Positions 16,215 to 41,669 of a stretch of DNA of 64,000 nt are shown piece after piece. Each line of letters begins with the position of its first letter. Position 1 is the stretch's first letter. The stretch is from Psammoneis japonica. Lineage: Eukaryota. A program made the translations under genes and the position numbers. Location of the stretch: the NCBI GenBank assembly GCA_008632985.1, contig QPGO01000166.1:1-64000 (forward strand), given 5' to 3'. The notes under the pieces are model-generated. The model searched no databases and was not told the DNA's origin. It saw nothing but the letters and a program-made list of their open reading frames with translations.

Positions 16215-19200
16215 TAGCTGGACGGTGTGTCTCTCTCATTGTCTTCACAACCATCATGCCACCGTGCAAAAGAAGTCCAGAACAACTTTCCTGCCTCTAG
16301 AATTTGCACCAGGAAAGCAAAGAAAGCCCGGAATGACATGTTTTTCTGGATGTTCCTGGTGCTGACTCCACACCAGATTCTGCGCATTTTGGCAAATTCC
16401 CATTGTTCCAGGAGTTTGTTGACCCCCGGTGCTGACTGTGAGCTGGTTTCTGTGCAGTTTGACATTCCAGACTTGTGATCACATGAAGCAATTTGTGTTC
16501 AGCCCCATGGCCTTCAAAATTCATTAGACACTGCTTTGCACACAAACACCGCTTTTGCGGTTTCAGCAATTTTTAAAGTGGCCAGCCCCAAACCCCAACC
16601 TTGTCTCACCAATCTCTGTCTCCAGTCTGGGTGAGAGCAGGGCAAGGCAGAGGGGGAAATGCAGACAGATGCATGCATGCAGTGCAGCACTTCAGAGTCA
16701 AGCAAGCTTGCAAGGATCAAGCAATGTGGCAGCTGCCAGGCGCAAGGGCAGGCAGCAGGCCGTGCTGCACAGCAGAAGCAGGCGCAGCACCAAATCTTAC
16801 ACTCTCACTGCTGCTGGCACTCATGAGATGGAAGTGGTGCACAAATGTCTTCTTGTCAGCAGTTGTCACTGCATCTGCTGAGAGTGGGATGGCAACTTTG
16901 CCAGCACTCTCTGCGGGTGCTTTCTCATGGGCCCAAAGCTCTGTGGGGTGGTGACAGGGCTGTCACAGAGGCCAGGAGAAGTGTGGGAGCAAGCCAAGCT
17001 GTGCCCTGAGACAGCAGCTGTTGCAGGCATGATTGGCTAAACAAAAATTGAGAACACAAACATTGAAAAACAGCAGAGATGAACAAAGCAGTTTTAGATC
17101 CATGTGGCAGGTTCAATGCTCACAAGCGGCCCAACAAGAGGCAAAACAATGGGCTTTCTTGATGTGCATGTGCTGCTTGACAAGGACAGACCTGCACTGT
17201 GAGAGGTGAAAGATGTTCTCCTTTTTGCATTTTTGTGTCTCTTGCAGAGCAGTGCCAACCATGATTTTGCGTGCACCTGCACACCTTCCCATGTGGTGCC
17301 AAGAGATTTCATGTCCCTGGCCCAGCACAAATGATGCACAATGCACCAACAATGTGGCACAAGAGAAGATGATGATTGCAAGTGTCCCAGAAGGGAAAAA
17401 AAGAGCATGAAGAACAGTCTGTGCAGATGGCATTTGTGGCACCAGACAACAGTGCAAAATGACATGCTGAGTTGACAGGTGCCAGATTCAGAGAGAGGAC
17501 ATGTTCATTGTCTTGACTTTGAAAGAGCTGCAGGAGAGCAAGCCTTTGCCTTAAGAGCACAGTGTCAATCACCAACATTTGTGCTGAAGGAGCTGGTGGT
17601 GAAAGGGAGTTGTCTCTTCACAAAGCACATGCCAGCATGTGTCAAAAACAAGTCTCTTGCTTTCTGGGTGGTTGTGGTTCTTTGTTCTTTCTCCAAAAAT
17701 GGGAGGCAACCTGATGTGCTGTTGAGTTTGCATGCTTTGTCTAATGCCAAAGCATCATGAAAAAAGGTGTGCCAAAAGCTCTGCCACTGTCAGTGGTGCT
17801 GCCAACAGCAGCACAGAATCATGTGCCAAGGACAAAATGTTGCAAAGGGTGGCTCTCCAACAAATGGTGCACAGCATGACATGGAACAAATGCACTGAAG
17901 TTTTCCATGGCACAGGTTGTCACCCACAAAGTTGATGCAATCAGAAGTGTCATGAACAAGGGGCCAGTTTTTTAGATTGCAGCAGAGCACTTGGCTCACG
18001 GTGCAATGCAGCAAGAAGACCCTGACAGCATGCACAAACTTGATTTGTTAGAAGGGTGAAAAGCTCTTGGCAAAAGTGCCTGAAATGAGAAGATGCAAAA
18101 AAGATGGCGGCACCATGTCACACACAGATTGTCGCCACAAGAATGCACAAAAACACTCTGCTGGAGAGGTGTGCCCAGGTTTTCTCTCATGTCAAGAGGG
18201 TGTGTTGTGAGCCAATGAAGCATGCTGTCCTGAGTGGGTCCCACAGACAAAAAAGCACAGTTGCCCAACATGACAGGGCGGCACACTCCCTGGTGGCCCA
18301 GTTGACTCCATCATCAGACCCAACAGAGCAGCCATTTGCTGACACACTGGTGCTGCTCAGCACATCAGCAAATGACTGTCAACAGGGCCAAACATGTTGG
18401 GATCTACAGGCACACATCTTGTGCACCAAAAGCTCTGGAAGATGCCACTCTGCTGCTGGCCTCTCAAGAAAAATTGCCCCAAACAACTGCACGGCCATGT
18501 TGAAAGCAATGGTGCACAAATTGAAAATGGGTGCAAAGCTGTGCCTGAGTGGCTGACAGGCATTTGAGAAAAATGCAAAATTCAAAGGAACATTGCCAAA
18601 AGAGTGGCGCCAGCACAGCATCAATCAAACAAAGGCTGGGTGAAATCATGTGAGAGAACACACTGCATTGAGCCAGAAACTGGGGGGAGCAGGCAGCCAC
18701 TGGCATTTTGGCAGACCAGCCAACAACCAGACAGTGCTGCCAATGTGCAACAAGTCAAGCCACAAATCCCAGCACCACTTTTTTCACCCCTGATGACTGC
18801 CTGCACTGCCACCCTGCAGCAACCTCTGTGTTTCTGCTCTCATGCAGGCTGGCACTTGGCAGGATGTGAAACAAGAAGGAAGTGGGTGCAGCATCTTGAT
18901 GGGACATGGATCATCAGGCAAAAAAAGCACCACAGTTGCAGAGCTGGCACTGTGTTGTCAATCTTGACATGACAGGTGCTGTCCCACCATGCTGGTGGCT
19001 GATGGGGTGTTGGGTTGGATGGACTGTGTTGGGCACCCTGGAGTGGGGTGGCTTTAAGACTGGGGGCTTGTGTGGCTTGGGACAAGGTGAAGTCAGCAGA
19101 AATCACTTGAAAACACTGGTTTCTCATTTTTCTGTTGGACACTGTTGCACCTTGCTTCTTGTGTCTTCTGTTGCTTCAAAGCCCTGTTTGGCACATCCTG

Positions 19201-19420
19201 GTCTGCAACTGTGCCTCCTCTCTCTGTGGCAGTGCAACATTGGTGGCCCCTTCACAGTCTTCCTCCTCTGTGGAAGCTCCCAGCTTTCCTCATTTGCTTG
19301 GTCACCTTCACAACTCAGTCTCTCTCTCTCTCTCCTCCATTGTGGCATTTCTTTCTCCCTCTGGGTGTCGTGGCTCGAGGTCTGGTTTCTCGTGGCTCAT
19401 TGCACTGTCAACCAGAGAGA
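16215..19420. mobile_element. TpA/CpG-depleted block 1: degenerate repeat or transposon-derived DNA
   Basis: Only about 12 TA dinucleotides in about 3.2 kb by manual scan; TG/CA enriched; ORFs Tyr-free; abrupt return to normal composition at both ends. No TE family could be recognised. Confidence 0.6.
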
Positions 19421-19770
19421 GTACATCACTCCCATACGAGAGAGTCGAGAGCAACAGGCACAATCTACTGCGTGGTAAACGCAAAAAAGACTCTGTCGAA
19501 TTGGTCGCAGCTCTGAATCGTCGCCTCAAACAATGTCAAAGACAAAAAAAAATTGGTCGAGCAGCGCAGGAGAAAGACTACCGTAGTGTTAGACTATTCA
19601 GAAATAAGGATAACCAGTTCTTAACGCATTAATGCTTCATTCTGCAGTGTCTGTATCCTGGATAAACTCAACACCAACCGGCACTAATAGCGCAAGATCG
19701 TCGTACAACCAAAATCACCACTGCTGGTTCGTCTTGTTCAGACGCTTCTCAATATTGACGCATCTACCCA

Positions 19771-20662: not shown

Positions 20663-21300
20663 TTTATCCGCCACTTTTAATTACTGAAGAAAGGAAACGA
20701 AGAGATCTGTAGCAATTCTGCGCCTACTAGTAGAGAGTGTAGATTTCAGAAAGAAGAGACGCAATGCTCAATCATGACAATTTATCGCTCCATCCGTCTC
20801 CTCTCCATCGCTCGTATCATATCGCGATCGTCCTCTACAGTATCTTCAACGCGCCGTCTGGCGTCTCTGGCAGTCCGCATTCCGTCGACGGAAAGGCAGC
20901 GCGGCGGGATGACACGATCGATTAGGGGGCCAGCTATACCGTACTCTAGCCCTAGAGCCTCTCTACTCTAGCTCTACCGGTATGAGAGACGCTCTCCGCA
21001 CCCTTCTAAATGACGGAAGCTCGACCACAGCAACTGCTCTACCTGATCTCGCGTGGAAAATGTTGAAATGCCTATGTAGGGCCTAGATTTGTCGAGTAGT
21101 AAGCTACTCCTAGAGTGGGCTAAGTCTCGCGGTCAATGGTGAACTTGCACTCGTGAACTTTAGTTGATCTCATGAATCCCATCAAAGAAGAGACCAAGGC
21201 CCTGGCTATACATACATAACTCTTGCTTAACTTCTAGTAGGCAATGTCAGCTGACCTATGGCGAAACCACCAATCAGTGCACAAACGTGACCGTCACTTT

Positions 21301-22326: not shown

Positions 22327-25300
22327 GAGGGGAGAATGTCGTTTCAAGGCTCGTGAAATGTTCTCCACTGAACTGACTTGACAGTAGCGATGCTGCTATC
22401 CAAAACTATTCTTTGCGACTTCAGACACAGCTCTCTTCTCTAGCGACGTACCGATAGAGAAAAGCAGCCGCAAGGGCAGTAAGCAGTACCAAGGCGTGAT
22501 GTGAAGTGTTGCTCAGAGCAAGGAGCAAGGACCGAGGACCGACAGCAAGGAGGGGAGGCGAGGAGGGAGGAGGAGCGAGAGTCGTCGTCCTTGATCGTCG
22601 TTCACATGGCTGGAAGTCATCAAAGACACATCAAAATTTCAAAAGCTGTCTGTAGAAGGCTGTAGTAGAGGGTCATTCGCGGTCATTCGACAATTTGGAC
22701 ACGAGTTTTTTGTCGACCGCACATCTGTACAGTACGTACGTACTGTACGTACGGTACGTATGATACGTACAATCGTCAACTTTTCCGTTGAGAGATCCGT
22801 TGAGATAACGGTTTCCTTTGAAAAATCGTGACAATCCTCCTCGGAAACACGCAACAACACGCCCGCGATTTGTGTGACAGCGCTTTACATGTCCGCGGCC
22901 AAGGACAATGCAAGGCCAACATTGCCTGCAAACAGCACACTGATGGGCTTTTCCTTTTCTCAGCCTTTGTTCAGGGCCTGTGTGCTGCGGCGGTGTGCGC
23001 TGCTGGAACAAACACCAAACAACACTTGTGGGTGCCAAGCACAAGGAGGAGCTTGGCTCCCTCCACCTTGAATTGGCTGCAATTGGCCAACCAAAGAAGA
23101 GTCCATTCATTGAACCATGCATGTTGGCAGGTGACTCTGGCATGGAGCAAACAGCTGTGTTGGTGGGTGGTGGTGGGTGGAGCCGTGCTGGGCACACCAG
23201 CAATGGCGGCGCGGGCCACCGTGCCCACCAGAGCTTGCTTCTCAGCCAAAAGAAAATGCAACCCTGTGGTCTTGAGAAAGTGAATTTGTTGGCTGAGTGT
23301 CATCTCAACACTCCTCAACACTGTGCTCAAGGTTGCAAGTGCAGCAGGGGAGAACCGCCCACACCGGCTCAAGCTTGAACAAAGCTGCTTTGGCGCTGTG
23401 ACCACAGAGCATCAAAGAAAAAGACCGCTGTCATGGAAGGCAAGACAGCAGAAAAAGCAAAAAAGCTGTGCCCAGAAACTAAGCTGAAAGTTGCTTGTGG
23501 CACTGACTTGCTGTGCACGCTTTTTGACAAGCTGGGTGGGCAGCAGAAAAAAGGAAGGCAGCACTTCTGCAAGGGCGGCATTGGGAACTGACTCCACAAT
23601 GGCCGTGCAAAGAAGAAGGGTCATCAGATCTCATGGTGTTCTGCAGCATTGCTGCTTGACAAAGAGGAGCCCAAAGTGGCAATGAGCAACAGGCTTGACA
23701 TCAACCTCAGCTCAAAAGGCACACAGCAACGCCACTTTTGTGCGCCAAAACATTGCTCATTGTCAACCCCAAAAATCTGCACAACAACCACACAAAAACC
23801 AAATGAAAACAACACTTCAATGAGGTTTGCTTGACAGCAGCAGCTGAGCAAGTGGTGCCAGCATGCTTGCCATCAATGACCAAGTTTCCACTGCACAGCC
23901 AGTGGCAGGTGTTTCAGTTGGGCAATGATTTGTCACAAGGTGCGCAGAAAACAATGGTGCCCACTCAACCAAGAGAGCAAAGTGCAAGAGCTTGACATGC
24001 CATTTGAGCCTGTCCTTGCTTGCAGTGGAAAGAAGCTAATTTCCTCCCATGTGAAGTCAGAGGATGCTGCAGCTGTGGCAAAACACTTGGTGGCTTCTCA
24101 AGGCAATGACCCTGTGGAAACTCCTGCGACAGTTGTGAGAAAGATGCGCACAATTTGCTGAGAACAAGTGACAGAACTGAGGTGCTCCTGTCCACATGCT
24201 GGGCTGAAAACAGGCAGCATTGTTCCCTTGTTGTGTTTCCCAAATCTGCACCTTCAGACATGACCATGAAAAAAAAACAAGAAGAGGCTGGCGCTGCACA
24301 TGTGCTCTGAGATGTCCTGCAATGAAACATGCAGTGGAATCTTGACATTCCTCATGAGTCAAGCCACTTGGCAACTTGGCTTTGTTTGGTTGAAGATGGT
24401 GCTTGCACTGTGCAACCTGCCATTCATTGCCTCGCAAACAAGCTGATGGCAATGGATGATGACAACAAGCTCCATGGACCATTGTCAGTGCACCAGACTG
24501 GCAGCTGGCAGCCATGATGGCATTTGCAAGAACTGCAAGCATCAAAGCTGCACCTTTCATTTGATGACGCAAGGTTTTGCAAGAAACCAGGTTGCTGCCA
24601 AAAGACAGAGTCTGTGATGGACTGAAATGCTTTGCAGGAGGAGAGCCATTTTGGATTTGATCAAGAGCTGGCAGTCTTGTGGACAAACAATGCAGAGTCT
24701 GAGGAGGGGCTCAACTTGTCTTGCAACCTTTTGCTGGAGCTCATTTGTGACAAGAAGGAGACAAAAAGGTGCCTTGACTTGTGCTTTGCTGGTGACTTGA
24801 CTGCATTTCTCATTGACAAGGTGTGGAGAGCAGGCGACTTTTGCTTGCCATTTTCACATGGACACAACATCCTGTGACAACTGACTGCCAAAGAATGATG
24901 GCAAAGCAAAAGGAGGTGGTGTGCTGGCACCATTCAATGGGTCCCAAACCAAAACACAGCATGGCAAAGTCAGCCAAAGTGATGACCAAAGTTGTGGACA
25001 TGCAAGCAACATTTGAAGAGCAGTGAGCAGCAACAATGGCAGTGCACTCAGTGCTTGTGTCAAGATTGACCCCAGTCTGTTGCTTCTGTGTTGTGATGTT
25101 GCTCAGTGCTGTGGCAACAAAGATTTGAAATGCACAGCTGGGTGAATCAAACACACTTGCATGAGACGGCCTTCCTCCCCATGAGCTGACAAACCATTTT
25201 GCATCAAGCTTGTCTCCCACTCAGATCTTTGCTTTGAACCAAGTGGAGTTTCTCAAGCACACAACACCACAATTTGATTGAACTCAAGTTGTTGCAGTCA

Positions 25301-26667
25301 TGGAGTGAAGCAGCAAACTCTGCCTGATTTGCTCCTGCAGAAGATGTCACAGGCAGCATGGTTTTGAGTTTTTTGTTGATTGCCCCCATGTGTCTTCAAA
25401 GTTTGAGGGGTGCACTGCCAACCCCAGATGACGTCATTCTTGTGCACTGGCACAAGCCTTGTCATGCAACACATTTGACCAGAAAGCATCAGACAGTGTG
25501 TGTTTGACAATCTGGTCCAGAATGAGTCCCCCGGGGCTTTTGCAGGAGGCAGCACTGCACAGAGTTTTGCACAGATTTGAAAGTTGGCCAGCACATGATG
25601 GACCATGGGAGAGAGTTCTTTGAGTCAGCACTTCTGACCAATCTCTCAAAGAAGCTTTGCTCTGGCATCAAGTGGGCCAGGCATGACTTTGGATCCAAAA
25701 GGACAGCTGCTGTCGGCAACAGACCTGCAGCACAAAACCATTGTGACATTGTCTCAACAACTGCAATGGATCTCTGAAATTGTGAATGGATGACAGTGCT
25801 GCACATGCATTGCAGCTTTTAGAGCAATCCCAGGAGGAGACAAAATCTTTCCTTTGTGCTTTGATGGCGCCCTGAGTGAGATGGGTTCAATGGGCACAAA
25901 TGCCACAAAGTCTTGTCCAGAGAGCAATCCTCAAACAAAAAATTGACCTTGATGAGCAAAGAAGAGGATGATGAGGCACTCAACTCTTGTTGCTCCAACT
26001 TGTCAATGTGCATGCCTTGTTGAAGCCTGTCCTTTTGCAGTGTGGCTGATGGAGGCCATTTTTCATTGGAGGGCTTGCAAACTTCTTAGAGAGTCATGCA
26101 CAGAGGCCATGGCAAACCAGAACAATGCTGGGGAGTGTGTTGTTGGCATTCAGTTGTTTCTGGCAAGTGACAAATTCCAGGGGGTTGCCAGGCTAGAATC
26201 AGGTTCAAGTGGCAATTGCACTGCCTGCAAGAAGAGAGCTGCAAGAAAAATGCCAAAATGAGACACAAGATTGTTGCTCTGAGCAATGGATCATCCTGTG
26301 TGTTCTGTGTGGTCTGTGTGCAAAAGTCACATCTGTTGGTGGAAAGTTGAAGTGTCGACATTGAGCAGCTCAGCTGCCTGCTCCTGGCAGCACACCACCT
26401 GCACTCCAAATGCCACCAACTCCAATGATGACTCAAGTGCTGCCTGCTCACCCTGGTGCACACACCCCCGCCACCACCACCCTCTTTGATCTTTGCAAAA
26501 TGAGCTTTGCCCAGATCCACAGTTGGCATCTGTTCATCCTCAGCTTGAACATTCAGTGAGTGCTTTTGCTGCACTTTTGTTTTCTTTGACACATGCCACA
26601 AACTCCAACAACTCAAACAGGAAAGGCCAGCATCACGCACACTCTTGAGTCTGCTGGAAAGAACAAA

Positions 26668-27254
26668 AATTGTGCTGCAAGCAGTCAGCAGCAAGCAGTG
26701 TCTCAATGACAGCAAAATGATGCAAGGCAGGTTCAGCCCACTCTTGGATTTCATCTTGCCTCTCTTTTCAACACACACAACAATGCACAAACCATGAATG
26801 ACAACATGGCAAGATGTGCCTTTGGCACTTCACATTTGTGTTAGACACAGCATCCATTGCGTGGAGCCATTTCAAACAAATTTTGCACTGCATTTTGTGC
26901 TGACATGTGTCCATGAAAAGAGAAGCAAGATGAAATCCAAGAATGTTGTGCTGCAAGCAGTCAGCAGCAAGAAGTGTCTCAATGACAGCAAAATGATGCA
27001 AGGCAGGTTTGGCCCATTCTTGGATTTCATCTTGCCTCAAAAATTGTGCTGCAAGCAGTCAGCAGCAAGCAGCGTCTCAATGACAGCCAAATGATCTTGC
27101 CTCTCTTTTCATGGACACATGTCAGCACAAAATGCAGTGCAAAATTTGTTTGAAATAGCTCAACACAATGGATGCTGTGTCCAACACAAATGTGAAGTGC
27201 CAAAGGCATCTTGCCATGTTGTCATTTGTGGTTTGTGCATTGTTGTGTGTGTTG
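26668..27254. repeat. Composite repeat: three direct copies of a gtgctgcaagcagtcagcagcaag... unit plus an approximately 160-bp inverted repeat (26769-26931 / 27094-27254)
   Basis: Direct alignment by eye; the ORF track shows PLALHICV..HSIHCVE.FQTNFALHFVLTCVHEKR on both strands. Confidence 0.9.
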
Positions 27255-30200
27255 TGCATGTGTGCTGCTGAAACCACTTGTGAGTTTTCCCTTTTTTTGG
27301 AGTCACATGCCTCCTGGCACTTGTCAATGCAGACTCCACTTGGGCTGATTGCCCCATGTGCCAATTTGTGTTTTGCGTCTGCCACATGGACAACAATTTG
27401 ACACAAAAACCATTGATGGATGAGTGCAGGCAATGTGGCAAAACACGGTCTCTCTCTCTCTCTCTCTCTCCTTCAAACGTCTTGCCAAGTTTTAAGTTTG
27501 AGACTTGCAAGTTCTAAAAGTGCCTTTTGTGCATTGAAAACAAGTTTCTGATGTGCGCGAATGTGCCAGAGCCTTTCAACAAAAACAAAAACACAGATCA
27601 CATGGTGGGCATGTGCAGCAATGCATGATGTGCACACACACACAAAGGCACTTGCACATGTCTGTGCATTTCCTGTTTTTGTCAGTGTTTGAGGCAGCAG
27701 TCAGAGAGGGGCCTCACTGACCAGTCATGTGCAGCAGGCATTGCTTGCTCTTTGTTGCCTCCTCTGGATCCTCTGAGGAACAGGAGGGGTGCACCACCAC
27801 AGAAGCAAAGGTCCAATGTGTTCCAGCCTCCTCACATGAGTGCACACACAAAAAAAGACATTTCCACAATTTTTGCACGGTTGCCAACTCACGATTGCTT
27901 TGTTGGGTGGAAAACAATGTCTTCGCTCATTTGCAAAAACCAACAAAACCCACCAAAGTGCACCAAAACAAGCAGTTGCTCTTCATTTCCCACTTTCATT
28001 GTGCCAAGAATTGTGTCACAACACAAGCATTGTTTGTCTCAGGAGCGAAGTTCTGTTTGTCCTTGTGAGCACTCAAGTCAACAAAGTCTTCCAGTCATTC
28101 ACACAGTTGTCCTCTGAGGACCTTCAATGCAACAAATCAGACAGTGAATTTTTTGTGTTGCACAAAAAGTGCTTTTGAACTGGGGACAAAAGTTCTCGTG
28201 CAGTGAGACATGTGGAAACAACTTTGCCGTGCATGGAATTCTCTGTGGGTTGCCACCTGTTTTTTGCACAAGTTGTCGCATTGGTGTGTGGTTGTTTTTG
28301 ACCACTTTCTGTGACTTTGCAGCTGCGCAAGCAGCCCCAACAACCAATTTGAAGTGGGCGCGGTGTGTGTCATGAAGGAAATGGTGAGCTGTGCACTGTG
28401 TGCCAAAATGGACCTGTTGCATTTAAAGGATTTTGAAGGTCTCAATGAACCACCCAAAAGTTGATGCACAAGGTCATCAAAAACAGATCTGTGTGACATG
28501 CAAACAACCACATGATGCAATTTGGATGCAGAGGATTCAATGGTGGCATTTGCATGCACTGAGTGCTTTTGTGATGGGGGTTGGAATGGCCCAAGAAGAG
28601 GGTGCAAAAACTTTGCACTTGAAAGTCACTGAGATCTCCTCAAGTCTGCAGCCATTGCAACAACAAACAAAAGAGAAATGGCACCTGCAGACCAAGTGAA
28701 ATGTGAAAGCTCCAATGGTGTCATTTTTGTTGCCACAAGGCAGGTGGAACAAAGAAAGCAGCCACTGTCATGTGTGCAGCCATGTCATCACTGTGTTGAG
28801 CAACGCTTCAGGAGTTTGAAGAAAATGAATGTTCCCCTGGAGTGTGAACAAGGCATGTTTGATTTTTTCAATGCTGGAGTTCAAGACAATTGTGCCCAAA
28901 AATGTGATTGTCAAACAAATCCATGAACCCATTGTTTTGCATGTCACCAAGCACTGGAGCATGTTGCCAGGCACAGATGCACGTGTTGCACAAGCCTGGT
29001 GCATGCTTGTGCTCATTTTGCAGCTGAGCAGATGTGCAAGTGGCTGTGGTTGTGTGCCAGCCATGCTGCAAAGCCAAAGCCTGCAACACCCCTCTCCCAA
29101 AGCTGTGCTGCCAAGTTGACAAAAGTTGTGAATGCAAAGCTGTGCATTTTGCAGCATTTGCCACCAAGCACTGCAACAAACTTGGGGCAAAACTTTAGAT
29201 TTGACAGTGAAGAAGTTTGCGCACCACATGTGAGCAAGCACACAACATTCACACCAACAGGCACTTCTCCTCAAAATGTGACCAGCTCAGGGTGTGTGTG
29301 AGTCACAGGGAATCATTTGGCACTTTGACCTGGTGAGGGCACACTCAGGTGTGTTGTGTTGGCCCACCTCTGTTGAGGTGCATGCTCTCTTGTCAGCATT
29401 TCTTTTTTTTTCATTTGTTCTCACCTTTGTCATTTGGGTTTCACGTGGATGTTGTCCCATGACCAAATCTTTTGATGTTTTGGATCTTGACTCAAGCGCA
29501 ACAATGGCTGCAACTGTGTGGCATTGTTTTGTTTAAATCCATGATGCAGCTGTGTTTGATTGTCACCAAAGACATTTCCGTTGAGGAATTTTTCAAAAAT
29601 GTCAACAAAAATTTTGCATTTGATGTGTTTTCACATTGGATGTTGACATGCTCAGTTGTCAGGGCAACAAATCCAACTGGTCTGTTGTGTGAAGTGACTT
29701 GCACCGCAATTTGTTTGTCCCTTCTGTGACACTTTCCCGTGCAAATTTTCTTCCTCTCAAGTTTTTCTTGCTTTTGCAAAGTCCAGGCAATGTCAACAGG
29801 AGGATGGGTTCCCACAAATCCACTTGGTCTGTTGCATCAAGCAACTTCCACCACAATTTTTTGTCCTTTCTGCAAGACTTCCACATGAATTTTACCCTGT
29901 GAACTTTTGCTTTCTTTGTTTTGACCAGGGTGAGATTTGTGTGCCCAACAGGCAGGCAAAGAACAGATGCACATGTTGTGGAAAAATCTCTCAAGCACCA
30001 TGATGACTCCCTTTTCACTTGACTCAGTCAGCTCAAAAATGGCAGCACAGAGGAACAAGCATTGTGCCCCTCTTCCAGTGATTCTGAAGAATCCACTGGT
30101 GATGAAAAAAGAGGCCCTTTCTTCCGACCAGTCACAGTGCAGGGAACACAGAAATGCCTCTGGTGGTGACTCTCTTTGCAGACCATGCACATGAGGCAGA

Positions 30201-33200
30201 AAAGACACTTGCATTTCTGTCACTCACACCTGCAGCCACAAACAATTGAAATGTTTTTGAAACTTGGGGGCACAATGGTGCAAAGCAGCGTGACCACAGC
30301 AAGTGCAGGCAAACACACAATGCAAAAACAACAAGGAGTCAGGGCAACTTTGGCTCAGAGACAGATCAATCCAAGTGAGCAGATGGCCAATGATGAAAAG
30401 GTTGGCAGAGACATCAAGGTGAGAGATCATGTCAAAGAAAAGGTGTTTGTGAGCACTGCACTCATGTTTGGCACAAAGCAATTGGACAAAACAGGGCGCT
30501 GCACAAAGACAAGTTTTGCTGCAAGTGTTGGCCTCGCTGGGGCATTGATGTTCAGCAAGATGCAAATCTGACACCAGCAGCTTTGCACCGTTTCCAATTG
30601 TGTGTGGGCATGAAAAGATGAAAGGGCAACTCTCAGCTCTCACAGGTGTTGTGAACCAGCTTGAGAACATTGCCAACAAATGGCTCATGGCAAAGAAGGT
30701 TGTTGCAAAGAAGTGAAAGTGTGCAAGATGACTCAAGTGCTGTGTGGCAAGCAACCAAAGCCCAGCAAAGATGTGTGCAGGAGATGATGCAAGATGCCAA
30801 GGAAAATGGCAGAGGATGGTCACCAAGAGCCAACAAGTTCTCCAAGGAGCCGGTTGTGGAGGTCAAATGAGATGTCAAAAGTGAGTGGCTTTTGTGCAGA
30901 ACAGTTGCAGCCAGCCATGGAAAGCAAGTGGGGGAAAGACTTGACAACTTGGATGATGCGGAAGACCACATGGCAAGCTGCACCAAGATCTGCAAGCTGG
31001 AGTTGACAGTGGTTTGGGAGATGATGACCCATGAGCAGAGATGCTTTCATTGTTCAACATGAAATTCCAAGGCAACTCTGCACCACAGAAGCTGTGCGCC
31101 AGATGGCAACTGTCAAATTGATCATTTTGTGTGTGCACAAACTCAACGAGTTTGGCCATGCTGGCTGGGTTGACAAGTTCTTGATTTGTGCCCATGGAGA
31201 TGTTTGCTGGAAGAAAAGGACACTCACTTGTTTTCAAAACACCCCAATTTGTCACAAATGGGGTGAATTCATGAGGAATCTGACTGATCTGTCAACAAAT
31301 GAATTTGCATGTGTGCACTCACACATGTTTTGTGCAGTCAGTCTGGTCATCTGCGGGTTGGAGGATTCTTAGATTTGGGTCCCTGTGACCCAGAAACAGC
31401 CTTGCGGTTGTCATCAATGACAATCTTTGCAGCTGCCTTTGCTGCTCATTGTTGAACTCAGCACACAAAGCACAGCAACAATGCTCCATCTGCTCAGGAA
31501 CCTGGGCAATGGTCAGCACACAGCAGCAGCCTTGTCAAAAAGCACCACTGTTGCTGCAGCAACAAAGCAGAGGGCTGCTCTCTGTGTTTGCCACTTCAGC
31601 ACCCTGAGAAAAAGGAGCTGTGCAGAAGAAAAGGTCAGCACCAGATGCACAAGCCATGCAACTCTTGCACTGATGAAAATGGTCCCCAACAACATGCAAG
31701 CTGAGTGTGCTGCACATCAGTGCTGGAGTGCATGAAGTGCAGCTGCTCTTCTTGAAAAAAAAACTCCAACAAAGTGTTGCTGCTGGACCAAAGAAAAACA
31801 TGTTCCCCTGTTTGTGTGCAGGCTGTTGGAGGGCAATGCCCCAACTGCACTCAAAGACAAGCTGCAAGACTTGGCCACCAAAGCAAATCAGATCTTCATG
31901 CAGTGTGCAGATGCCATGACAAAACAAAGCAAAGTCTTTCCCAGGAGGGCAGTGCTGCCACACAAGTGCTGCTCAAGGTGTTTTGCACAAAAGCCTGTGA
32001 AAATGAAGACTTGGTGGGAATGTGTCACAAGAGAGCCATTGAGCTGAGCAGCTGTTTGAAGAATTCTCCACCCTTGGTTGAAGATGGGGGTGGCCTGCAA
32101 GATGTGAGGACATGTTGGCAAGCTTGTTTGAGTTTGGTCTGCTGTGAGAAGCCAGCAGCACTGCACGGCTCCACAGGACTTTGACCCACTTGCTCACACA
32201 ACCTTCAACAAGTTTGTCTTATTTTGCAAATGAGTCAAGCCCCGCCAAAGGCAGGCTGCAAAAGGCGCCCAAGGACAAGAAGGCCTCCCTCTCTTCAGGG
32301 CACCTTGGGCTGTCAAAATTGTCCATGAGCTCAAACCCCACAAATTGTGGGGCTGGACAATCATGGAGCAGCATGCTCTCAGTGGTCATGTTTGCTGTGT
32401 GAGCCACAGCATGCCCTGCTGCTTGGGTGCTGTGCAGTGCACCACCCACCATGCTGGCCTGGGTGGGTTCACACTCTGGACACAAAGCAGAAAAAGCTTG
32501 TCTGCACATCAAGAAAAAGAGTTCTGAGTGCAGAGAGTGCCAGCACACAACAGGGCAGCTGATGCTTGTCAAACAGGAGCAAAAAACAAAATGTGGGGCT
32601 GGCTGTCTTGTGTGGGCCCTGCCAAAGGAGTTGCATGCACAAGGGAGACCAGCAGCATGCTGTGCACACAAGATGGTGTGCACTGATGGACACAATGTGC
32701 AGTGCACTGCAGATGGCAACCCATCATCAGCAAGATGCATCTGGCCTGCTTTGCAGCCCTTGTGTCCTGGGTGTCCTGGGGGGGGGGCACCACCATGCAA
32801 GGCACACACAGCACTGGCAACTGGCAGATGCTAGCATGACATGGCCTGTGTGAGATGCAACCTTCTTCACAAAGGTGAGTGTCAGGCACAGACACACCTG
32901 TGCTGCCCAAGCTTGTGCAGCTTGTGAGTGCACATTGGCATGGTTGCTTGCCAGCTGTGAGCAAACCCACATCACTGGATTGTGCACTCAGCTGCTGCCC
33001 CAAAAAGCTCTGCTGAGGGAATGAAGCTTTTCAGTTGTGAGTGGAGAAGCTTGCTCAAATGTGCATGATGTGGCTGCACACAGCTTGTGTGGCTGAAGAA
33101 TGTGTTTCAGCAAAACATGTTTTCTCAGAAGCAGTCTTTTGACTCTGTCATTGGCACTGATCTTCACAGCTGCCTTTTAGGCTCATTGCCAAATTTGGCA

Positions 33201-34153
33201 CATGATGAGGAAATGGCTGCTGCAAAGCAAGCTGGACACAGGCAGTTTTTGAGCACATTGCATTTTTTGTTCATTTCTTCCATCATTGCTTGTTTTAGTG
33301 GAAACAGGCGCTGCTCTGCATTTTGAGATGCTCTGGCAAAAAGAGATGTGAAGTCCTGGTGCACAAGAACTTTCCAAAGATGCACCACAAAAGATGTTTC
33401 AAAAGCCCAGCTTGCTGCAATTTTGTGCACACTCCTCCCTCTGCACCTTGTCCCCTCTCTTGCCACCACCCCAGTGTGGTGCAGTGGGTCAACAGACACA
33501 AAGCTTGCCTTGTTGCTTCAAACATTCAAGCTTCTGAGTTGCTTGCCAGAGAGAAAACAAAGCTTTTTCCTCAATGTTCCACAACAACACAAGGAGGCCA
33601 AGGGCTGTCTAATGTGTGGTTGACAGATCTGACACAGCAGCAGCAGCAGCAGCAGCCTTGTGAAGATCTGGCATTTCAGCTGGTTTCAGCACAAGGTGCT
33701 GATTGTGAGATGTGCTGTGCTTGTCAGATGGGGCAGCAAACTTGCCCCCCCATGGTGCACACCACATGTGGCAAAATCCTGCTTGTTGTTTCATGAAACC
33801 TTTCTCTGCATTTTGAGTGCAATGTTTTTTGTGGTGGGGTGTTGCCTGATGGCAAGCTGCAAGGGAAAAAATGGCAAGACTCAGCAAACTTCTTCTGAGA
33901 ACCACACTTCCAAAAAGTTGCCTTCACCCAGCCACTCTCTCACTGGGTCATGTTCTGGAGCATGAGGCATCATGTGCACTTTTGAGTGTGCCACATTGGA
34001 AAAGCAGCTTTGCAAGTCTTGAGAAGCCACCAACACCTTCCCATGGGCCACCCAAGAGAGAGAGAGAGAGAGAGAGTTTGCCAATTTTGTTTGTTTGGGG
34101 TCACGGTTGAAGGGAATCAAGCCCGCCAGCAACAGATCAACCAAAGAGGACAA

Positions 34154-35030
34154 ATTTAGCGCTGAAATGACTCAGTGGAAAAAAACATTTTTGACACACA
34201 CAAAATGTGTGTCCACACAAAAACATCATGCACAAGCACCCGGATGCACATTTTTGAAAGTGTCACAACCCAGAGGCCATGTGGGATCACACCAGCGACA
34301 CACATGTGACAAAAAACCCGGATGCACATTTTGTCAAATGTGTGGGACATTTTGAAAAATGTGCACCCTGGCAAAATTTTGCACATGTAGAATTTGCACT
34401 GGAAGTCTCGCAGATGAGGACTGGCCAAACGCACTTGTCAAGTCCAGGTTTTGCACCCCAAAATGTGCTGAAACTGGCTGTGTGTTTGCCAGGCAGATGC
34501 AGCACTGATCTGTGACATGACAGCCTCCCTCCAACACTGCGCACCGTCTTCACACTGACACAAGCTTCAACAACTGTGCCGCACAAATCCAATGCCCACA
34601 GCCAGATCCTGTGCTGCGCTCTTGAGATCCTCCTGTGTGAGTGACTAGACAGCATGCACACTGTCACTTGCTTGAGCAGGTGACAGCTGCAAATGCATGC
34701 AACAGTGAGCCAAATGGCTGTCACTTGTTTCCAGTTGCTTCTGTGCAGTTGCTGGCTCATCATGAGTGCATTGCAACATTTTGGTGTGATGCCACACAGA
34801 ATTTCCTGGTGCATTTCTACACAACACTGGTGCACTTTTGTGCATTCAGTGCAAAATGAGCTCCAAAAACTGAAAAATGCCCCCCATGCATTCAGCCAGT
34901 CCTTGCTTGCAGACATGTTTTACACACCCGGATGCACATTTTGAAAGCTGTGTCACACATAAAAAGTTGTGTTGCAAGGTGTGCAAAAAATGCGCGAGCT
35001 CACCACATGGAAAAAATGCACATGTGGCTG
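34154..35030. repeat. MITE-like or subterminal repeat region with recurring cccggatgcacatttt motif
   Basis: Motif at about 34239, 34317 and 34927, with tgtcaca/aaaatgtg submotifs; ends not defined. Confidence 0.5.
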
Positions 35031-38000
35031 CACAGCTGGCAGTGCAATGGTTGCAGGGGCTTGAGTCACAGGAGCTTGTGTCCCTTCCCATGCCTGGCTT
35101 TTCCTGCAGAGCTGCAAGACAAAGATCACCTTCCCAGCTGCTGTGTGGCTGTGTGTGCCAACAGAGGAAACAACATGTGCAGCTGAGCACAGCCACAAAG
35201 GCAAGCCACAGTTGGAAAATGCAAACAAGAGTTGATGTTGCTGGCTGAATTTTGGGCTTGTGTCAAAACTGCATGAGAAGAGACTTGGAGTGCCAAGATC
35301 TCTGGGGCAGAGTCTCAAACCTTTTGTTGCTCAGTGCAGCAGCACATGCCTGCAGTGCTGCCAAAAGCACCACAGAGTGCTGGGGCTGTCAAGGCCAAGC
35401 AAAAAACTGCAAGAGACAACACACATGTCATGTGGGGGCAGAGGGTGGCAGAGGCAATCTGAGAAGGGAAAAAGGGCTGCTGAGGGGAGCAACCAAGAAT
35501 CTTGCTGTGTGTTGCAATCACCAGGTTGAGGGCAAATGAAGATCACAGGGCTTGGCAGGCCTTTTTGTGGCTGGCATCACAACAGGCTGGCAAGTTTGTG
35601 TGCTGTGAGCAGGTTGTGTTGCAGTTCTCAGCACTTTTTTTACTTTTCTCATGCTTGATCTGATGTGTCTGCCAACATGGGCTCTCTGTGAGCCATTGGA
35701 GGGTGTGGGATGCAAGAGGTGGGCAAAACAGGCAGTGCCAGCTGAGCTTGTTTGCCTCAGAAGTTTTTGCTTTTCTCAAGCTGCAGATCAACCTGAGCTC
35801 CTGTTTGGGTGCTTTTTGAAATTGCCAAACACACTCAGGAGATGCTGAGCCCAGCAGAAGTGCCGCTGGCAAGAAAGGAGGCCTGCAGCAAGAAGAAGGT
35901 TGTGTCGCACCATGCCATCTCTTTTGACTTCTGCCAAATTGTTTCCACATGGCAGCTCTGATGTTCCAGTTGGTTTGCATTGTTGAGTGATTTGTGTCAA
36001 AAAATCTGATGTGCTGGCAGCACAGGAAAAAGAAGACAAGCCCACCAGCCACTTGTCAAGATTTTTGTCTGTGGGCTGTGTGCGAAAGTGTGCCCCCCCC
36101 CCCCCCTCTGAGCAAAGGCAATTTGCAAAAAGAAGGTGAAAACCAGCAAGAACAGTGAAGCTTCAAGAAAAAAAGCTCTGCATCAAAAATCTGGGGCAGA
36201 AACAACAGAGCATTTTGACCAGTGTGCACAACTTGTTGTGCATTGAGAAAAGTGCCACGCATCTCTTTCCTCTGCCCTTGCTCCACAACCCAGGCAGGCA
36301 AAACAAGCACTGGCTTCAACAAGAGACAAGTGGCTGGCTGGGCGACACTTTCATTCACAAGGCCCAAAGGCTCTCTAAAAGCCACAATCTGTGAGAACAC
36401 CTGCAACTTTGTCAGATGATGTGAGCTGCAACACATGACTTGCCTTGAGTTGCTGAAAATGCCCAGAGTTTGGGCAATTCATGAAAGCAAAAAAAAACTG
36501 TGGGACATCTCCAATGAGCACCAGCCATTGTGCTTGACAGCACTTTGGGTGGGGGGGGTGGGCTGCCACATCCAACTGAAAGATGGGGCTGAGCTGTGTC
36601 ATGGCTGTTTGGCCCCACAAGGTTCTCAGGGTTTGTGTGCAGACCCTGAAAAATGAGGCCCAATGGGCATGCAATGTGGGCACTGTCAAATGGGCAAATT
36701 GATTGGAGTGGGCAGCTCTTTTGTTTGTCACTCCCAAAAAGGACCAGACAGCACAGCTCCTTTGTTTGTCATTTCCAAAAAGGGCCAGACAGCACAGCTT
36801 GTCAATGGTTTTTACAAGCTGAGCAAAGTGATGAAGTGAGTGCCAAGTGTCGTCTGACCCCACATTTGCAGCACAATTTTGTCTTGGAAAAAGCACAAGG
36901 TGTGGTTGTTGCTGATGGGCTCATGTGTGCATGTCTCAGGAGGAAACATTGGGTCCATTCCAGGATTTTGTGTGTGTGCTCATGTGCAGGCAAACAGACA
37001 ACCTTCAAATTTTGATTGGGTGCACACAAAATGCAAAAAACTCAATGCTGTTGAGCACTTGCACATCTGCGTTTTGACAAACCATTTGAGGAGGAGCATG
37101 ACATCACACCCAAATGGCAACTTTGAGCAGCAATGTTGTGGGGCAGTTGACACTGGCATCCTTTTGCAACAGCAAAAAGCTTGGCATTGCCCAGCCAAGT
37201 TGCACAATGATGGAAACAGAATTGCCAGCCATTGTGGAGGCACTGAAGGAGCTCAGGTTCACTCATCTTGGGCAGCAGACAGTTGTGGATTCTTGTCATG
37301 AAAACCTCACACACAAAGCACCCAACACCACCAAACTTGTCATGTGTGCTGGTGGCTGACATGTGCAAAAGTGTGTGGGCCCAAATCATGACATGTCAAT
37401 CAAAGATGACCATCACAATTTGGTTGCTGATGCACCAAGTTGCCTCAATCTCAGTTTGTGCTGGAAACAGCAAATGATCCAAAGGCCCTGGAAATGCCAG
37501 AGAAGTGCACCCTCTGCATGAAGGTTTCCTGGCAGAAGTGAGAAAGATGCGTCAACAACCCCCACCAGCTGTGAGAAAATTCAAGCCAAACAGCAAAGGG
37601 CAAGTGCCTGCCACAAAAGCCTGCTGCATGGGCTTTTCATGAGGTGGCTCACTGAAAAAAAGCAGGCAAAAGACAAAGTCATTGTCCCAGCATTGCCACA
37701 AAAGAAGCAGATGGCTGGCCTGGCTGGCATCATTTTCAGTGGTGCCATCCTGGAGATGCTTGCACAGAAACATCTGTTGCCCCCAACATCTCCACTGGTG
37801 CAGTGTGTGAGCTGCAGCAAGATCTGTGTGCTCCAAGCAAAAAGCACTCCAGAAGAGCCAAAAGACAAAATCTCAAATGGAGGGAGTTGGCAGCAAAGAG
37901 GCAGCTCTGAAGTTGTCCTGTGGGAGAGACCCAGTGCATGGGCATGACACCAGGGGGGCACACCATCCAGCAAAAAGAAAAAGAAACCACTGCATTTGTG

Positions 38001-39559
38001 GGTGGTCAGGATGGTTGGTCTGGCAGCAACTGGGTGGCCAAAAACTGCCACAAAGTGTTGGTGCAAAAAGCACTGACATTGCTCATCTGATGTCATCAAG
38101 CAAGCCTGATCATGCAGGTGTCCATGGCTGAGAAAGGTTGTCTTCCACAGAAAATGGCTGTGGACTTAAAAAGAAACTGGGAGCACCAAATGTGCAACCC
38201 ACGCACAAGCTTCACAGTGGAGCATGCACACCAGATGGATTGGGAGTGTGCGAAGCAATCATTTTCAATCTGGTGTGTGGAGCTGGACAAGGACAAGAAC
38301 CCACAAAGCAACAGCATGCTCTGGTCATGTTTGCCATGCAGGCCATGGCCCACACTGCCACTGCTTGAGCAAGCCCAGCAAAGAGCTGGTGTTTGGCAAA
38401 GATGTCAGCATGTTCTTGAGTGTTGCCAGCTGTGCTGGCTGGAAGCACACACTCAGGAGAGAAGCAAAAGCTTGCTTGCACAAACAACAAGAGAGAGAAA
38501 ATTCCAAGCACAGAGAGGAAAGCCAATGTGCCACAGGGCACCAGCTGGCACTTGTCTGACAGGGACAAAGACAGAAAGTGGTGCTGAGTTTCTCATGCAG
38601 ACCCTGCCATTCATGTGCACACATGTGGTGGTGTGGCGGTGTGCTGATCGATGCATTGCACAATGACCCACAGCAGCAGATGGCACTGTGAGCCACACTC
38701 TTTGTCATGGGATGGAAAATTTGAGTCCCCCCCATGATGATGCCATGCATGTGGAAGAAATCCTGCTTGCTTCGCTGGATTTTTTTCATGATGGCAGGTC
38801 AAACACACCACAGAGTGGCATGTCTCTGTGCAGAGTGTGAGCAGCAACACATTTTGGGTGCCCACATTGGAGAGCCCAGCTCTTTGCCAAGACTGCCCTG
38901 GTGCTGTGTCCAAAAACAATCTCAGGGGAAGAGTCTCCAATCTTGTTGCAGCTGGCACAGCTGCACAAGTCAGCAGCACTGCCAAAGGTGCTGCACTGGG
39001 GCAGCCAGCTGTGCTGAGTGCCAAGCAAAATGCAAAAGACAGCACATGCATCATGCAGAGCCAGAGGCCAGTGGAGGCAATCTGAGAAGGGAAAAAGGGC
39101 TGCTGTTGGCAGCAACCAGGAGTCTTGCTTTTTGCTCCAATGTGGCAGGCCCACTTGCAGTTGGTGTGATGGCAGGTCATGAACAAATCTGCAAGCCAAG
39201 TGTTGGTCAAACTGCAACTCTTCTCAACCCTCTTTTCTTCCAGGAGAGGAGAACAAGAGAGGCAAGTTGGCTTGGTGTCATGCTTGTCACTCTCTGAAAG
39301 CCGCAATCCATGAGAACACCTGGGACTTTGTCAGATGTGAACCACAGCTGCAGCAGCTGGGAAACAGGCCAATCGTCCTTCGGCCAGGCCCACAGCAGGC
39401 CCACAGCACAGGCCCACCTGTTGGGGGGTGGGGTGTCACGTGTCACACACACTCTCTGCTCTCTAGAGTGGCCAGAGCTGGCTGGAGTAGAGAGTCTGCC
39501 GCACACACTGCACATGTGGCCCCAAACTGTTGACTGTTTCTAATTGCTCTACCTCACAG

Positions 39560-41669
39560 AGGGAGTTGCACTCTCAAGCGTTGTTGTCACCCACTGCTGC
39601 AGCTGCAACGGCAGGCTCAGCAGCCCCTCCATCGGCACCCACACCAGACTGGTGACACTCCTCCAGCTGAGCATCAATCCTGGCTTGAAACTTGGCTGTT
39701 TCCTTGCGACATTGCTCCAACTCCTCACTGCTCATGTCATTGAGATCAGCATCTGCATCTTCAACAAAGACAGGTGAGGAGGGGACAAAGAAGCCCAGGC
39801 AGTTCACAACACATTTTGCTGGACCCTCAATCCCTTCAGTGCCCTTGGTCGTCTTTGTGTTTGGGATGGGACCATGCTGCTCCATCCATGCATGTGGAGA
39901 CTTGTGCCCTCTGGCGGCATTTTCCAGAGGCCCATGAAGAAGGGGTGGCAAGCACAGTTGCTCAGGTCCATGACATGCAAGACACATGGGACATCAGATC
40001 TGTGTTTCAACATGCACTTGCAGCAATTGTGCGAAGAAAGATGCAGCTTGTTGTGGATGTCTGCAATGGACAAGGCATCCCAGCAGTGGTCACCCCTGTT
40101 TCGTCAAACAAGAATGAACACTGCACAAGTGGGAGATCAAATCAATGAGCTGGCGCAAAGCAATGGAGACTTGCTCGTCACACAGGAGGCACTTGCTCAA
40201 CTCAATCACAATGTCAGCAATCCAGACTTGTCGCTTGCAGCATTCCAAATTGGCCAAGTGCGTGGTCACAGATGCTTTGATGCGCTCGCACCTCGCCTCG
40301 ACACTTTCGAAAGCTTCTGTGGCCCGCTCCATTTCATCCCGGGCAGCGCACAGTGAGCACTCAACGTTGATCACCTCCTTGAAATTTTTGTCTCATGACT
40401 CCTCACTGTTCACTTTGACTGCTTCCCACCTGATCTTGTTGATCTCAAGGTTGTCGATGTTCTGCACCAGGTTGTTCCTTCCAATGCACATCAGTGCACT
40501 GGGGCAAGGGTCCTTGGCAATCTCCTTGACAAGGTCAGTGCAAATGGGAACCCGAGCCCCATCTTTCAGCATCAAGACCTTCTTGCACTCGTTGGATGCC
40601 TCGACCCTGCTCACGTCAAGATGGTCCCCTTTCTTCTGCAGATGCTTCAAAGCCAACTTGTCCTTGGTCATGCCAAGTGCTGACACGGCGGACGACACCA
40701 TGCCCCTTGTCACATCAGCAACAACAACTCTGTCCTCTGCACCATTGAGGCCTGTGGAGGAGCCACCTCCTGATGTTCTTTGTTCCAGCATTGGCGGATC
40801 CAGCGTGTTGGCGGCGGAATCAGGCACCGAAGCAACATCGGAGAATGAAAGCAACGCGGCTCCGTCAACAGAGGCGGCAAGTCATGACTGAGAAAGGAAG
40901 GATGAGGTGCCAACAGAAGTGCCGGCGCGTCATGACAGAAAGAGGAAGGATGAGGGGCTGAGCTGGTGGGTTGCTGCTGGTGAGCTCATGGCGTTGGTTT
41001 TTGTCCTTTTGGAGCACTCAACGTTGATCACCTCCTTGAAATTTTTGTCACATGACTCCTCACTGTTCGCTTTGACTGCTTCCCACCTGATCTTGTTGAT
41101 CTCAAGGTCGTCGATGTTCTGCACCAGGTTGTTCCTTCCAATGCACATCAGTGCACTGGGGCGAGGGTCCTTGGCAATCTCCTTGACAAGGTCAGTGCAA
41201 ATGGGGACCCGAGCCCCATCTTTCAGCATCAAGACCTTCTCGCACTCATTGGATGCCTCAATCCTGCTCACGTCAAGATGATCCCCTTTCTTCTGCAGAT
41301 GCTTCAAAGCCAACTTGTCCTTGGTCATGCCGAGTGCTGACACGGCGGGCGACACCGCGCCCCTTGTCACATCAGCAACAACAACTCTGTCCTCTGCACC
41401 ATTGAGGCCTGTGGAGGAGCCACCTCCTGATGTTCTTTGTTCCAGCATTGGCGGATCCAGCGTGTTGGCGGTGGAATCAGGCACCGAAGCGACATCGGAG
41501 AATGAAAGCGACGCGGCTCCGTCAACAGAGGCGGCAAGTCGTGGCTGAGAAAGGAAGGATGAGGCACCAACAGAAGTGCCGGCGCATCATGACAGAAAGA
41601 GGAAGGATGAGGGGCTGAGCTGGTGGGTTGCTGCTGGTGAGCTCATGGCGTTGGTTTTTGTCCTTTTGT
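39560..41669 (-). pseudogene. TpA-edited gene relic of unknown function with its 5' part tandemly duplicated
   Basis: ORFs 40930..41484, 40393..40854, 40090..40374 and 39574..39987 read as a natural globular/coiled-coil protein but have no Tyr, with His/Cys at plausible Tyr sites (LKHLQKKGDHLD, VPICTDL, EESCDKNF). Confidence 0.6.
40355..41669. repeat. Tandem duplication, 2 x 657 bp
   Basis: gagcactcaacgttgatc at 40355 and 41012; copies differ at about 22 positions. Confidence 0.95.

Follow-up and report, generated by a model that had tools for sequence, protein, structure and literature searches.

Flanking bases set which TpA steps survive in TpA-depleted blocks of a contig from the diatom Psammoneis japonica

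Several discrete, sharply bordered blocks in a 64,000-nt stretch of the diatom Psammoneis japonica (contig QPGO01000166.1; the whole stretch is called the window below) have lost nearly all of their TpA (TA) dinucleotides, with a matching gain of TpG and CpA (TG and CA). We found that the few TAs left in these blocks are not a random remainder. Their survival depends on the neighbouring bases, and it is well described by a model in which the two strands are hit independently, each at a rate set by the bases 3' of the A. A TA is lost about four times faster when that A is followed by a pyrimidine (Y) than by a purine (R), and it is hardly lost at all when a purine and then an A follow. All counts come from this one window.

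Results

TpA loss and the context of the survivors

Block limits were read from a table of dinucleotide counts per kilobase, which gave four TA-poor stretches, here called blocks 1, 2a, 2b and 3 (Table 1). The reference for comparison was 38,072 nt of flanking sequence, mostly genes, with 1554 TAs. Blocks 1 and 2a together retain 45 TAs where about 811 would be expected, or about 5 per cent. TA density falls from 40.8 per kb in the flanks to 2.3 per kb in these two blocks, and TG and CA each increase, from about 72 per kb to about 118. CG is also scarce there (129 in 19,879 nt, about 6.5 per kb, vs. 57 per kb in the flanks), and part of the TG and CA gain in blocks 1 and 2a is due to CpG decay; in blocks 2b and 3, TA was lost with CG largely retained.

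An earlier note on this DNA, made from the sequence alone, had counted about 10 YTAR and 2 YTAC among the survivors of block 1, and our recount was identical. For block 2 it had given about 23 YTAR and about 10 of mixed context; the 33 TAs of block 2a comprise 22 YTAR, 7 YTAY (6 YTAC and 1 TTAT) and 4 RTAR. Pooled over both blocks, the survivors are thirty-two YTAR, nine YTAY, four RTAR and no RTAY. The tetramers GTAC, ATAT, GTAT and ATAC, which the same note had reported missing from blocks 1 and 2, each have a count of zero.

TAs in the flanks are distributed quite differently: 18.0 per cent are YTAR, 25.7 per cent YTAY, 25.9 per cent RTAR and 30.4 per cent RTAY. The survivors are not proportional to this background (χ2 = 89.7, P = 2.6e-19), nor to the contexts of TG and CA within the blocks, the source pool for new TAs (P = 1.3e-15). 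With flank proportions, the chance of finding no RTAY among forty-five survivors is 8e-8. The survivors are scattered over the full length of both blocks. These background comparisons rule out chance, base composition and new mutation alone as origins of the YTAR bias.

A two-strand model of loss

Transitions never alter the purine/pyrimidine class of a base, so the number of pyrimidine–purine steps in each flank class is conserved and supplies an exact denominator. Survival was normalised on this R/Y skeleton, using the flank TA share for each class, and came to 24.5 per cent for YTAR (32/130.7), 4.7 per cent for YTAY, 1.7 per cent for RTAR and 0 per cent for RTAY (0/292).

We then fitted a Poisson model in which hits fall independently on each strand, at a rate that depends on whether a purine or a pyrimidine follows the target A. 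The fitted rates were kR = 0.69 and kY = 2.93, a ratio of TAY to TAR loss of 4.2 (95 per cent confidence interval [CI] 3.1–6.0). The model with context is far better than one without (likelihood ratio test [LRT] 70.9, P = 3.7e-17), and the sixteen tetramer counts are compatible with it (deviance 19.1, 14 degrees of freedom, P = 0.16). Under independence 0.9 RTAY survivors are predicted, and none was seen. Rates for the individual bases at +1 were 3.5 for T, 2.5 for C, 0.9 for G and 0.6 for A, though a four-base model brought no significant gain over the purine/pyrimidine model (P = 0.12). The proposal in the earlier note, that each strand is targeted independently with a preference for TAY and/or RTA, is therefore supported by the two-strand fit; 'TAY' and 'RTA' are one base pair seen from either strand.

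The second flanking base and the hexamer TYTARA

Each survivor was next split into two half-sites, one per strand, for a total of ninety. The base at +2 is A in 55 of the 90, compared with 26 per cent in either background (P = 3e-12), and positions +3 and +4 carry no signal. The fit gains from a term for A at +2 (LRT 36.8, P = 1e-8), and the resulting half-site rates are 0.05 for TA-R-A, 1.39 for TA-R-B (B being C, G or T), 2.12 for TA-Y-A and 3.21 for TA-Y-B. The flank rule first suggested thus holds at +1 but reaches further than had been claimed: the +2 base matters as well, and TARA is nearly immune. TAG makes up thirty-six of the ninety half-sites, and TAGA alone twenty-five.

When both half-sites are TARA, the site reads TYTARA. 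The count of hexamers of the form T-Y-core-R-A is conserved, since all four flank bases are immune to both mutation processes (TA loss and CpG decay), which allows a direct comparison. TYTARA accounts for 11 of the 69 TYYRRA hexamers in blocks 1 and 2a (16 per cent) and for 28 of the 215 in the flanks (13 per cent; Fisher P = 0.55), so the hexamer is not depleted at all in these blocks. In the same blocks, TAs outside TYTARA number 34 vs. about 797 expected, and TYCGRA, of which the flanks have thirty, is reduced to zero. Block 3 lay outside the model fit; there, TARA makes up four of the eight survivor half-sites.

Which base pair mutates

Survivor counts are blind to whether the mutated pair adjoins the neighbour that decides its fate or is the distal pair of the TA step, but the products (TG vs. 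CA, by context) discriminate between the two. In the blocks with TA loss only, YTGY and RCAR together number 269 and YCAY and RTGR 193, a share of 0.582 (269/462). We mutated flank segments in silico (2000 runs), which assumes flank-like ancestry. The simulated share was 0.599±0.019 when the adjacent pair mutates and 0.536±0.020 without context, where 1.1 per cent of runs gave at least 0.582; mutation of the distal pair gave 0.473±0.020, and none of the 2000 runs attained the observed value.

Half-sites of the R-A type gave a second comparison. The TG share before R-A is flat, at 0.313±0.027 in the flanks, 0.303 in block 1, 0.326 in block 2a and 0.333 in block 3. The CA share in the same position grows from 0.320 in the flanks to 0.62, 0.63 and 0.47 in blocks 1, 2a and 3, respectively. 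Because CA grows there while TG stays flat, a TA adjoining R-A was destroyed via the other strand. On the assumption of flank-like ancestry, which both comparisons share, the simulation and these shares reject the distal-pair model. They suggest that the mutated pair is the one adjoining the deciding neighbour (T[A>G]Y = R[T>C]A), a reading supported but indirect, as it draws on composition and not on traced events.

CpG decay as a separate process

In blocks 1 and 2a, CG has given way to TG or CA, which fits the methylation-deamination decay of CpG in silenced repeats. Block 3 lost 96 per cent of its TA and little CG, and TA erasure was therefore faster than, and separate from, CpG decay. The two tandem copies in block 2b, both without TA, differ mostly by CG vs. 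TG or CA, from which it follows that CpG decay continued after the TAs were gone. TA erasure thus seems to be the faster and earlier event, and in block 2b, with no TA left, CpG decay is still ongoing.

The 129 CpGs that survive in blocks 1 and 2a follow a context rule of their own, unlike that of TA. Grouped by the base 5' of the C on both strands, survivors over flank half-sites are 33/1349 for TCG, 50/1129 for ACG, 65/866 for CCG and 110/990 for GCG, for length-scaled survival rates of about 5, 8, 14 and 21 per cent. GCGC is the best survivor (25 vs. 122 in the flanks), and depletion is strongest for YCGR (P = 2.6e-4).

What blocks 1 and 2 are made of

Pfam searches of thirty-eight open reading frames (ORFs) of at least 120 aa and 118 ORFs of 75–119 aa gave no match in blocks 1 and 2 except for a sub-threshold RT_RNaseH fragment in block 2a (Table 1). 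Three read-through frames of positions 35500–39499 returned only this same piece (E = 0.0056), and block 1 has no ORF of at least 75 aa with a Pfam match. Blocks 1 and 2a are probably transposon-derived DNA. Contigs from one sample (runs X1 and X2) were aligned to the window; no X2 transcript contigs were found over 39000–42054, the part of blocks 1 and 2 that this alignment covered.

Repeats within the window consist of a single tandem pair and one small inverted/direct group, too few and too alike for polarising mutation events. The arms of the inverted repeat in block 2a have about nine differences, including TA vs. TG at 26842 (TGTTAGAC / TGTTGGAC) and TA vs. CA at 27156 (GCTATT / GCCATT). 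The differences between the arms show that TA sites in block 2a were altered after the inverted duplication, in one direction or the other. Short tandem arrays lie at the outer borders of block 2 (22725–22770, 41861–41998 and 42060–42111, with units of 9, 47 and 22 nt).

Block 3 and its second copy

Block 3 carries a class-3 lipase ORF that is open but damaged. Its 455 codons include 2 for Tyr, and 4.6 per cent each are Cys and His. Homologues come from diatoms (e.g. Helicotheca, Nitzschia and Pseudo-nitzschia), and in the eleven alignment columns where at least seven of fifteen diatom homologues have Tyr, the block 3 lipase has five Cys and six His. A change of TA to TG or CA cannot introduce an in-frame stop, since TGA arises only from TAA; the frame of a struck gene stays open over a long stretch even as codons such as those for Tyr and Ile (ATA) are changed.

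Contig depth in block 3 is 100–1000 vs. a baseline of about 60. A second version of the block is present at full single-copy depth over 54200–55117, with sixty-two differences in a 933-nt X2 contig. The comparison covers the 40 listed differences of 320 between contigs and window. Over 54156–54527, twelve of the seventeen listed differences are TA in the other copy where the window has TG (seven) or CA (five). Two further listed differences of the TA type, at 56776 and 56779, bring the total to 14/21 over 54156–56779 (TG seven, CA seven). The reverse polarity, with TA in the window and TG or CA in the other copy, does not occur among the listed differences. The products, TG and CA, show that A>G and T>C changes at TpA affect both strands. 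Two other searches for the second copy were negative: a protein search found no close paralogue of the block 3 lipase (best match 55 per cent identity), so that the Tyr comparison used distant homologues, and an exact 39-nt search of metagenome contigs for the other block 3 copy gave zero matches.

By these alignments, block 3 is a duplicated gene copy stripped of its TAs; the other copy is intact, has kept its TAs and is probably expressed. Summed X1 depth is 360–1000 at 53664–54274 and 56108–57300, compared with about 60 elsewhere, and high-copy repeats thus bracket the block. Since just one of the two lipase copies was mutated and repeats lie on both sides of it, we infer that targeting may go by neighbourhood, and not by duplication as such.

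Genes in the flanks are ordinary eukaryotic ones with normal TA content, among them an mRNA cap methyltransferase, an amino-acid transporter, NMD3 domains and an ataxin-10 domain. In these genes, contigs of run X2 skip stretches of 70–123 nt with GT..AG or CT..AC ends, i.e. introns (Table 1). Run X2, labelled 'DNA?', looks like RNA, because its contigs omit these introns.

Table 1. Coordinates of blocks and features in the window (aa, amino acids).
Feature	Position	Strand	Description
Block 1	16216..19420		3205 nt; TA- and CG-erased; 12 TA, 22 CG; TG/CA doubled
Block 2a	22887..39560		16,674 nt; TA- and CG-erased, pattern like block 1; 33 TA
Block 2b	39561..41700		2140 nt; 0 TA, part of CG retained
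Block 3	54063..56771		2709 nt; TA-erased, multi-copy; 4 TA, CG near normal
Surviving TYTARA	16296..16301		TCTAGA; block 1
Surviving TYTARA	16572..16577		TTTAAA; block 1
Surviving TYTARA	17093..17098		TTTAGA; block 1
Surviving TYTARA	17971..17976		TTTAGA; block 1
Surviving TYTARA	25818..25823		TTTAGA; block 2a
Surviving TYTARA	27513..27518		TCTAAA; block 2a
Surviving TYTARA	28422..28427		TTTAAA; block 2a
Surviving TYTARA	29194..29199		TTTAGA; block 2a
Surviving TYTARA	29532..29537		TTTAAA; block 2a
Surviving TYTARA	36374..36379		TCTAAA; block 2a
Surviving TYTARA	39462..39467		TCTAGA; block 2a
Surviving TYTARA	55367..55372		TCTAGA; block 3
Inverted repeat pair	26769..27254		block 2a; arms about 163 nt, 94-96% alike
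RT_RNaseH fragment, retroelement remnant	37102..37356	+	PF17917, E = 9.8e-5, 22.9 bits (below curated cut-off of 24.8)
Tandem duplication	40355..41677		block 2b; about 660 nt x 2, 96% alike
Class-3 lipase ORF, open but damaged	54035..55402	-	Lipase_3, E = 7.6e-6; 455 aa
Flank-gene intron	43293-43384		skipped by X2 contigs
Flank-gene intron	44250-44336		skipped by X2 contigs
Flank-gene intron	48935-49023		skipped by X2 contigs
Flank-gene intron	50585-50670		skipped by X2 contigs
Flank-gene intron	50749-50858		skipped by X2 contigs
Flank-gene intron	51679-51750		skipped by X2 contigs
Flank-gene intron	52081-52179		skipped by X2 contigs
Flank-gene intron	53051-53175		skipped by X2 contigs
Flank-gene intron	53495-53582		skipped by X2 contigs

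Discussion

A proposed mechanism and its alternatives

The account that we consider probable is that these repeat-derived or duplicated blocks underwent A:T-to-G:C transitions at the DNA level, confined to TpA. The strands would be hit separately, with a probability set by the two bases 3' of the target A (equivalently, the two bases 5' of the target T), and a hit on either half-site would destroy the TA step. Loss would be fastest for TA-Y, slower for TA-R-B and almost absent for TA-R-A. Near saturation, such a process would leave YTAR and above all TYTARA, because both half-sites of a survivor must be poor substrates. In blocks 1 and 2a, CpG decay (CG to TG or CA) overlies the TA process as a separate event. 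A four-base footprint (T, A, +1 and +2) would be the expected trace of a base-flipping nucleic-acid deaminase, and by its 3' hierarchy the best candidate would be a TadA/ADAT-like enzyme acting on DNA.

Several observations weigh against this account or parts of it. All expectations for blocks 1 and 2a use the mostly genic flanks as a proxy for ancestral DNA of probable transposon origin. The +2 effect emerged post hoc and in this window only, and in the inverted repeat, the arm opposite the TA at 26842 has TG at a near-immune TAGA half-site. The survivor at 27156 is an ATAG, with a fast half-site, and may be a new C>T change. As for the mutated pair, the TG share before R-A does climb in block 2b, to 0.405 (n = 111), and CpG decay, acting in the same direction, confounds the product asymmetry of blocks 1 and 2a. 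Of the TA differences that separate block 3 from its other copy, the eight informative ones split evenly between the faster and the slower half-site (four each), and Tyr codons after a pyrimidine became two Cys and one His, too few traced events to decide. Finally, one GTAC, a member of the fastest-lost class, persists in block 3. The earlier note had pointed to it, and it is indeed present at 55280–55283 (T at 55281), within the lipase ORF; under the model, this block should have about 0.1 RTAY survivors. Back-mutation may have produced this GTAC, or it may lie in a patch taken over from the other copy.

One alternative is a steady state, in which the blocks are old and saturated and most of the TAs now present arose anew by C>T at CA or TG and await removal, filtered by the same rule with a stronger preference. 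An equilibrium model with the TG and CA contexts of the blocks as sources also fits (rate ratio 14.9, CI 8–30), and the TA at 27156, with CA in the other arm, is most easily explained as a new TA. However, its likelihood is lower by 2.2 log units, it predicts 2.8 RTAY where none was seen, and TYTARA stands at its flank proportion, as untouched ancestral sites would give. We regard a steady state as unlikely, and since it still requires flank-dependent removal, it would alter the size of the rule and not its existence.

The rule could also lie in repair, if lesions (hypoxanthine or a modified thymine) formed at all TpA steps and were better corrected in YTAR and TARA. Sequence alone cannot separate lesion formation from repair, nor A from its paired T as the target. 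Against repair, the dependence is sharp and ends at +2 (T alone at −1, then the bases at +1 and +2, with no signal from +3 and +4), which resembles one small recognition surface, and a TadA-derived deaminase alone gives the same order of YAY over YAR in published data on base editors (PMC12528748). This explanation, too, we find unlikely, and slightly more so than the steady state.

It is very improbable that the survivors were instead created, by C>T at YCAR or YTGR, or retained through selection or protein binding on TYTARA-like motifs. Palindromes of the CTAG and TTAA type do occur among them, which is no direct support. YCAR and YTGR are only 21 per cent of the CA and TG in the blocks vs. 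71 per cent YTAR among the survivors, and creation leaves the product asymmetries unexplained. The blocks hold no detectable genes, the stretch checked for X2 contigs had none, and the survivors are evenly scattered. A sequencing or assembly artefact, such as modified bases of heterochromatin miscalled as G or C, is hardly credible: although the window comes from one sample and the sole runs found share that sample and may be its source, X1 contigs match the window inside the blocks (39963–40243 with 0 differences and 39076–39456 with 1), the second copy of block 3 has ordinary TAs, and the lipase frame shows coherent Tyr-to-Cys/His changes.

Comparison with known systems

The closest parallel comes from the chlorarachniophyte Bigelowiella natans, where a preprint describes real-time A>G and T>C hypermutation, only at TpA, of integrated nucleocytoplasmic large DNA virus (NCLDV) and virophage DNA, with 231 new TpA mutations recorded in culture, where they arose in some lines only (Mettrop et al., 10.64898/2026.01.13.699255). 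TpA-depleted genes there are enriched for reverse-transcriptase and DDE domains, and the authors propose an ADAT2-like deaminase. The changes in B. natans resemble those in our window in that they are limited to A>G and T>C, strike no step other than TpA, affect both strands and lie in discrete regions, with CpA and TpG increased. They differ in host (here a diatom) and in extent, as depletion there is partial (Rho TpA of 0.45 in the NCLDV region) and our blocks are near saturation, and in P. japonica CpG decay is superimposed in the older blocks. No flank rule appears in the main text of the preprint, from which 'context', 'flanking', 'trinucleotide' and 'tetranucleotide' are absent as words, though its supplements may hold one. 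With the same reservation about those supplements, our literature searches otherwise yielded no description from a diatom, no A-to-G genome defence and no flank rule. The observations in our window that bear on a possible targeting of mobile or foreign DNA are that flank genes are normal, that the blocks yield one sub-threshold RT_RNaseH fragment, and that block 3 is multi-copy and flanked by high-depth repeats.

Repeat-induced point mutation (RIP) in Neurospora and other ascomycetes is likewise a dinucleotide-specific transition hypermutation that disables repeats and spares neighbouring genes, and its signature is likewise read from dinucleotide ratios. RIP is ruled out here by its opposite direction, as it makes TpA from CpA, whereas the blocks lose TpA and gain CpA and TpG. 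It also creates stop codons, which a change of TA to TG or CA cannot do, and it strikes both duplicate copies, whereas here TA is retained in the second copy of block 3. APOBEC3 enzymes, which convert C to U in a single strand of retroelements, the minus-strand cDNA, with a short flanking-base preference, leave a similarly context-biased deaminase footprint in mobile DNA; the blocks differ in showing A:T to G:C changes at TpA on both strands.

Natural TadA/ADAT enzymes edit tRNA at position 34. Eukaryotic ADAT2/3 edits tRNA-Ser(AGA), i.e. U-A-G-A, and this target is the very half-site that is immune in our blocks. Editors derived from TadA are more similar. TadA-8e A48E prefers YAY over YAR and ABE3.1 prefers YAC, according to published data (PMC12528748), which matches the blocks in the pyrimidine (T) before the target A and in the 3' order. 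These editors act on single-stranded DNA and, unlike the process in the blocks, are engineered and guided by Cas9. The TadA/ADAT-like features of our footprint are thus the T at −1, which holds by definition of the process, and the 4.2-fold excess of TAY loss; this is a likeness of footprint only. The connection to TadA remains a hint, one that agrees with YAY over YAR.

ADAR also produces A-to-I changes read as G, with a preferred 5' U; its favoured context is given as 5'-UAG-3' (PMC11334849). An ADAR-type footprint was rejected for the blocks: the 5' T fits, but 3' purines are disfavoured (kR of 0.69 vs. kY of 2.93) and TAGA is nearly immune. ADAR acts on double-stranded RNA, unlike the process here, which altered both DNA strands in a duplicated gene and in retroelement remains.

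Implications

TpA-specific A:T-to-G:C hypermutation of mobile DNA has one prior description, the 2026 preprint, and so far lacks an enzyme. To this the present window adds the strand-independent fit, an effect at +2 that leaves TYTARA immune, a test of the mutated pair from its products and the reading of block 3. It places the process in a second, distant lineage, and here it damages a duplicated host gene while the other copy stays intact. Gene finders will annotate such dead genes as intact.

The quantitative rule, TAY > TARB >> TARA, makes the question of the enzyme testable, as candidate deaminases can be scored on four-base oligonucleotides, and the 231 Bigelowiella mutations can be checked against the same order. 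Retention of TYTARA can be used in genome scans to separate hypermutation from ordinary TpA avoidance. It is possible, though we hold this view only tentatively and think it doubtful, that the footprint reflects the substrate preference of a natural TadA/ADAT-fold enzyme that deaminates adenine in DNA, acting in the defence of diatoms, and perhaps of Bigelowiella, against repeats or in heterochromatin. If so, such a defence would disable genes by missense changes without creating stop codons, and mobile elements could retain TYTARA sites.

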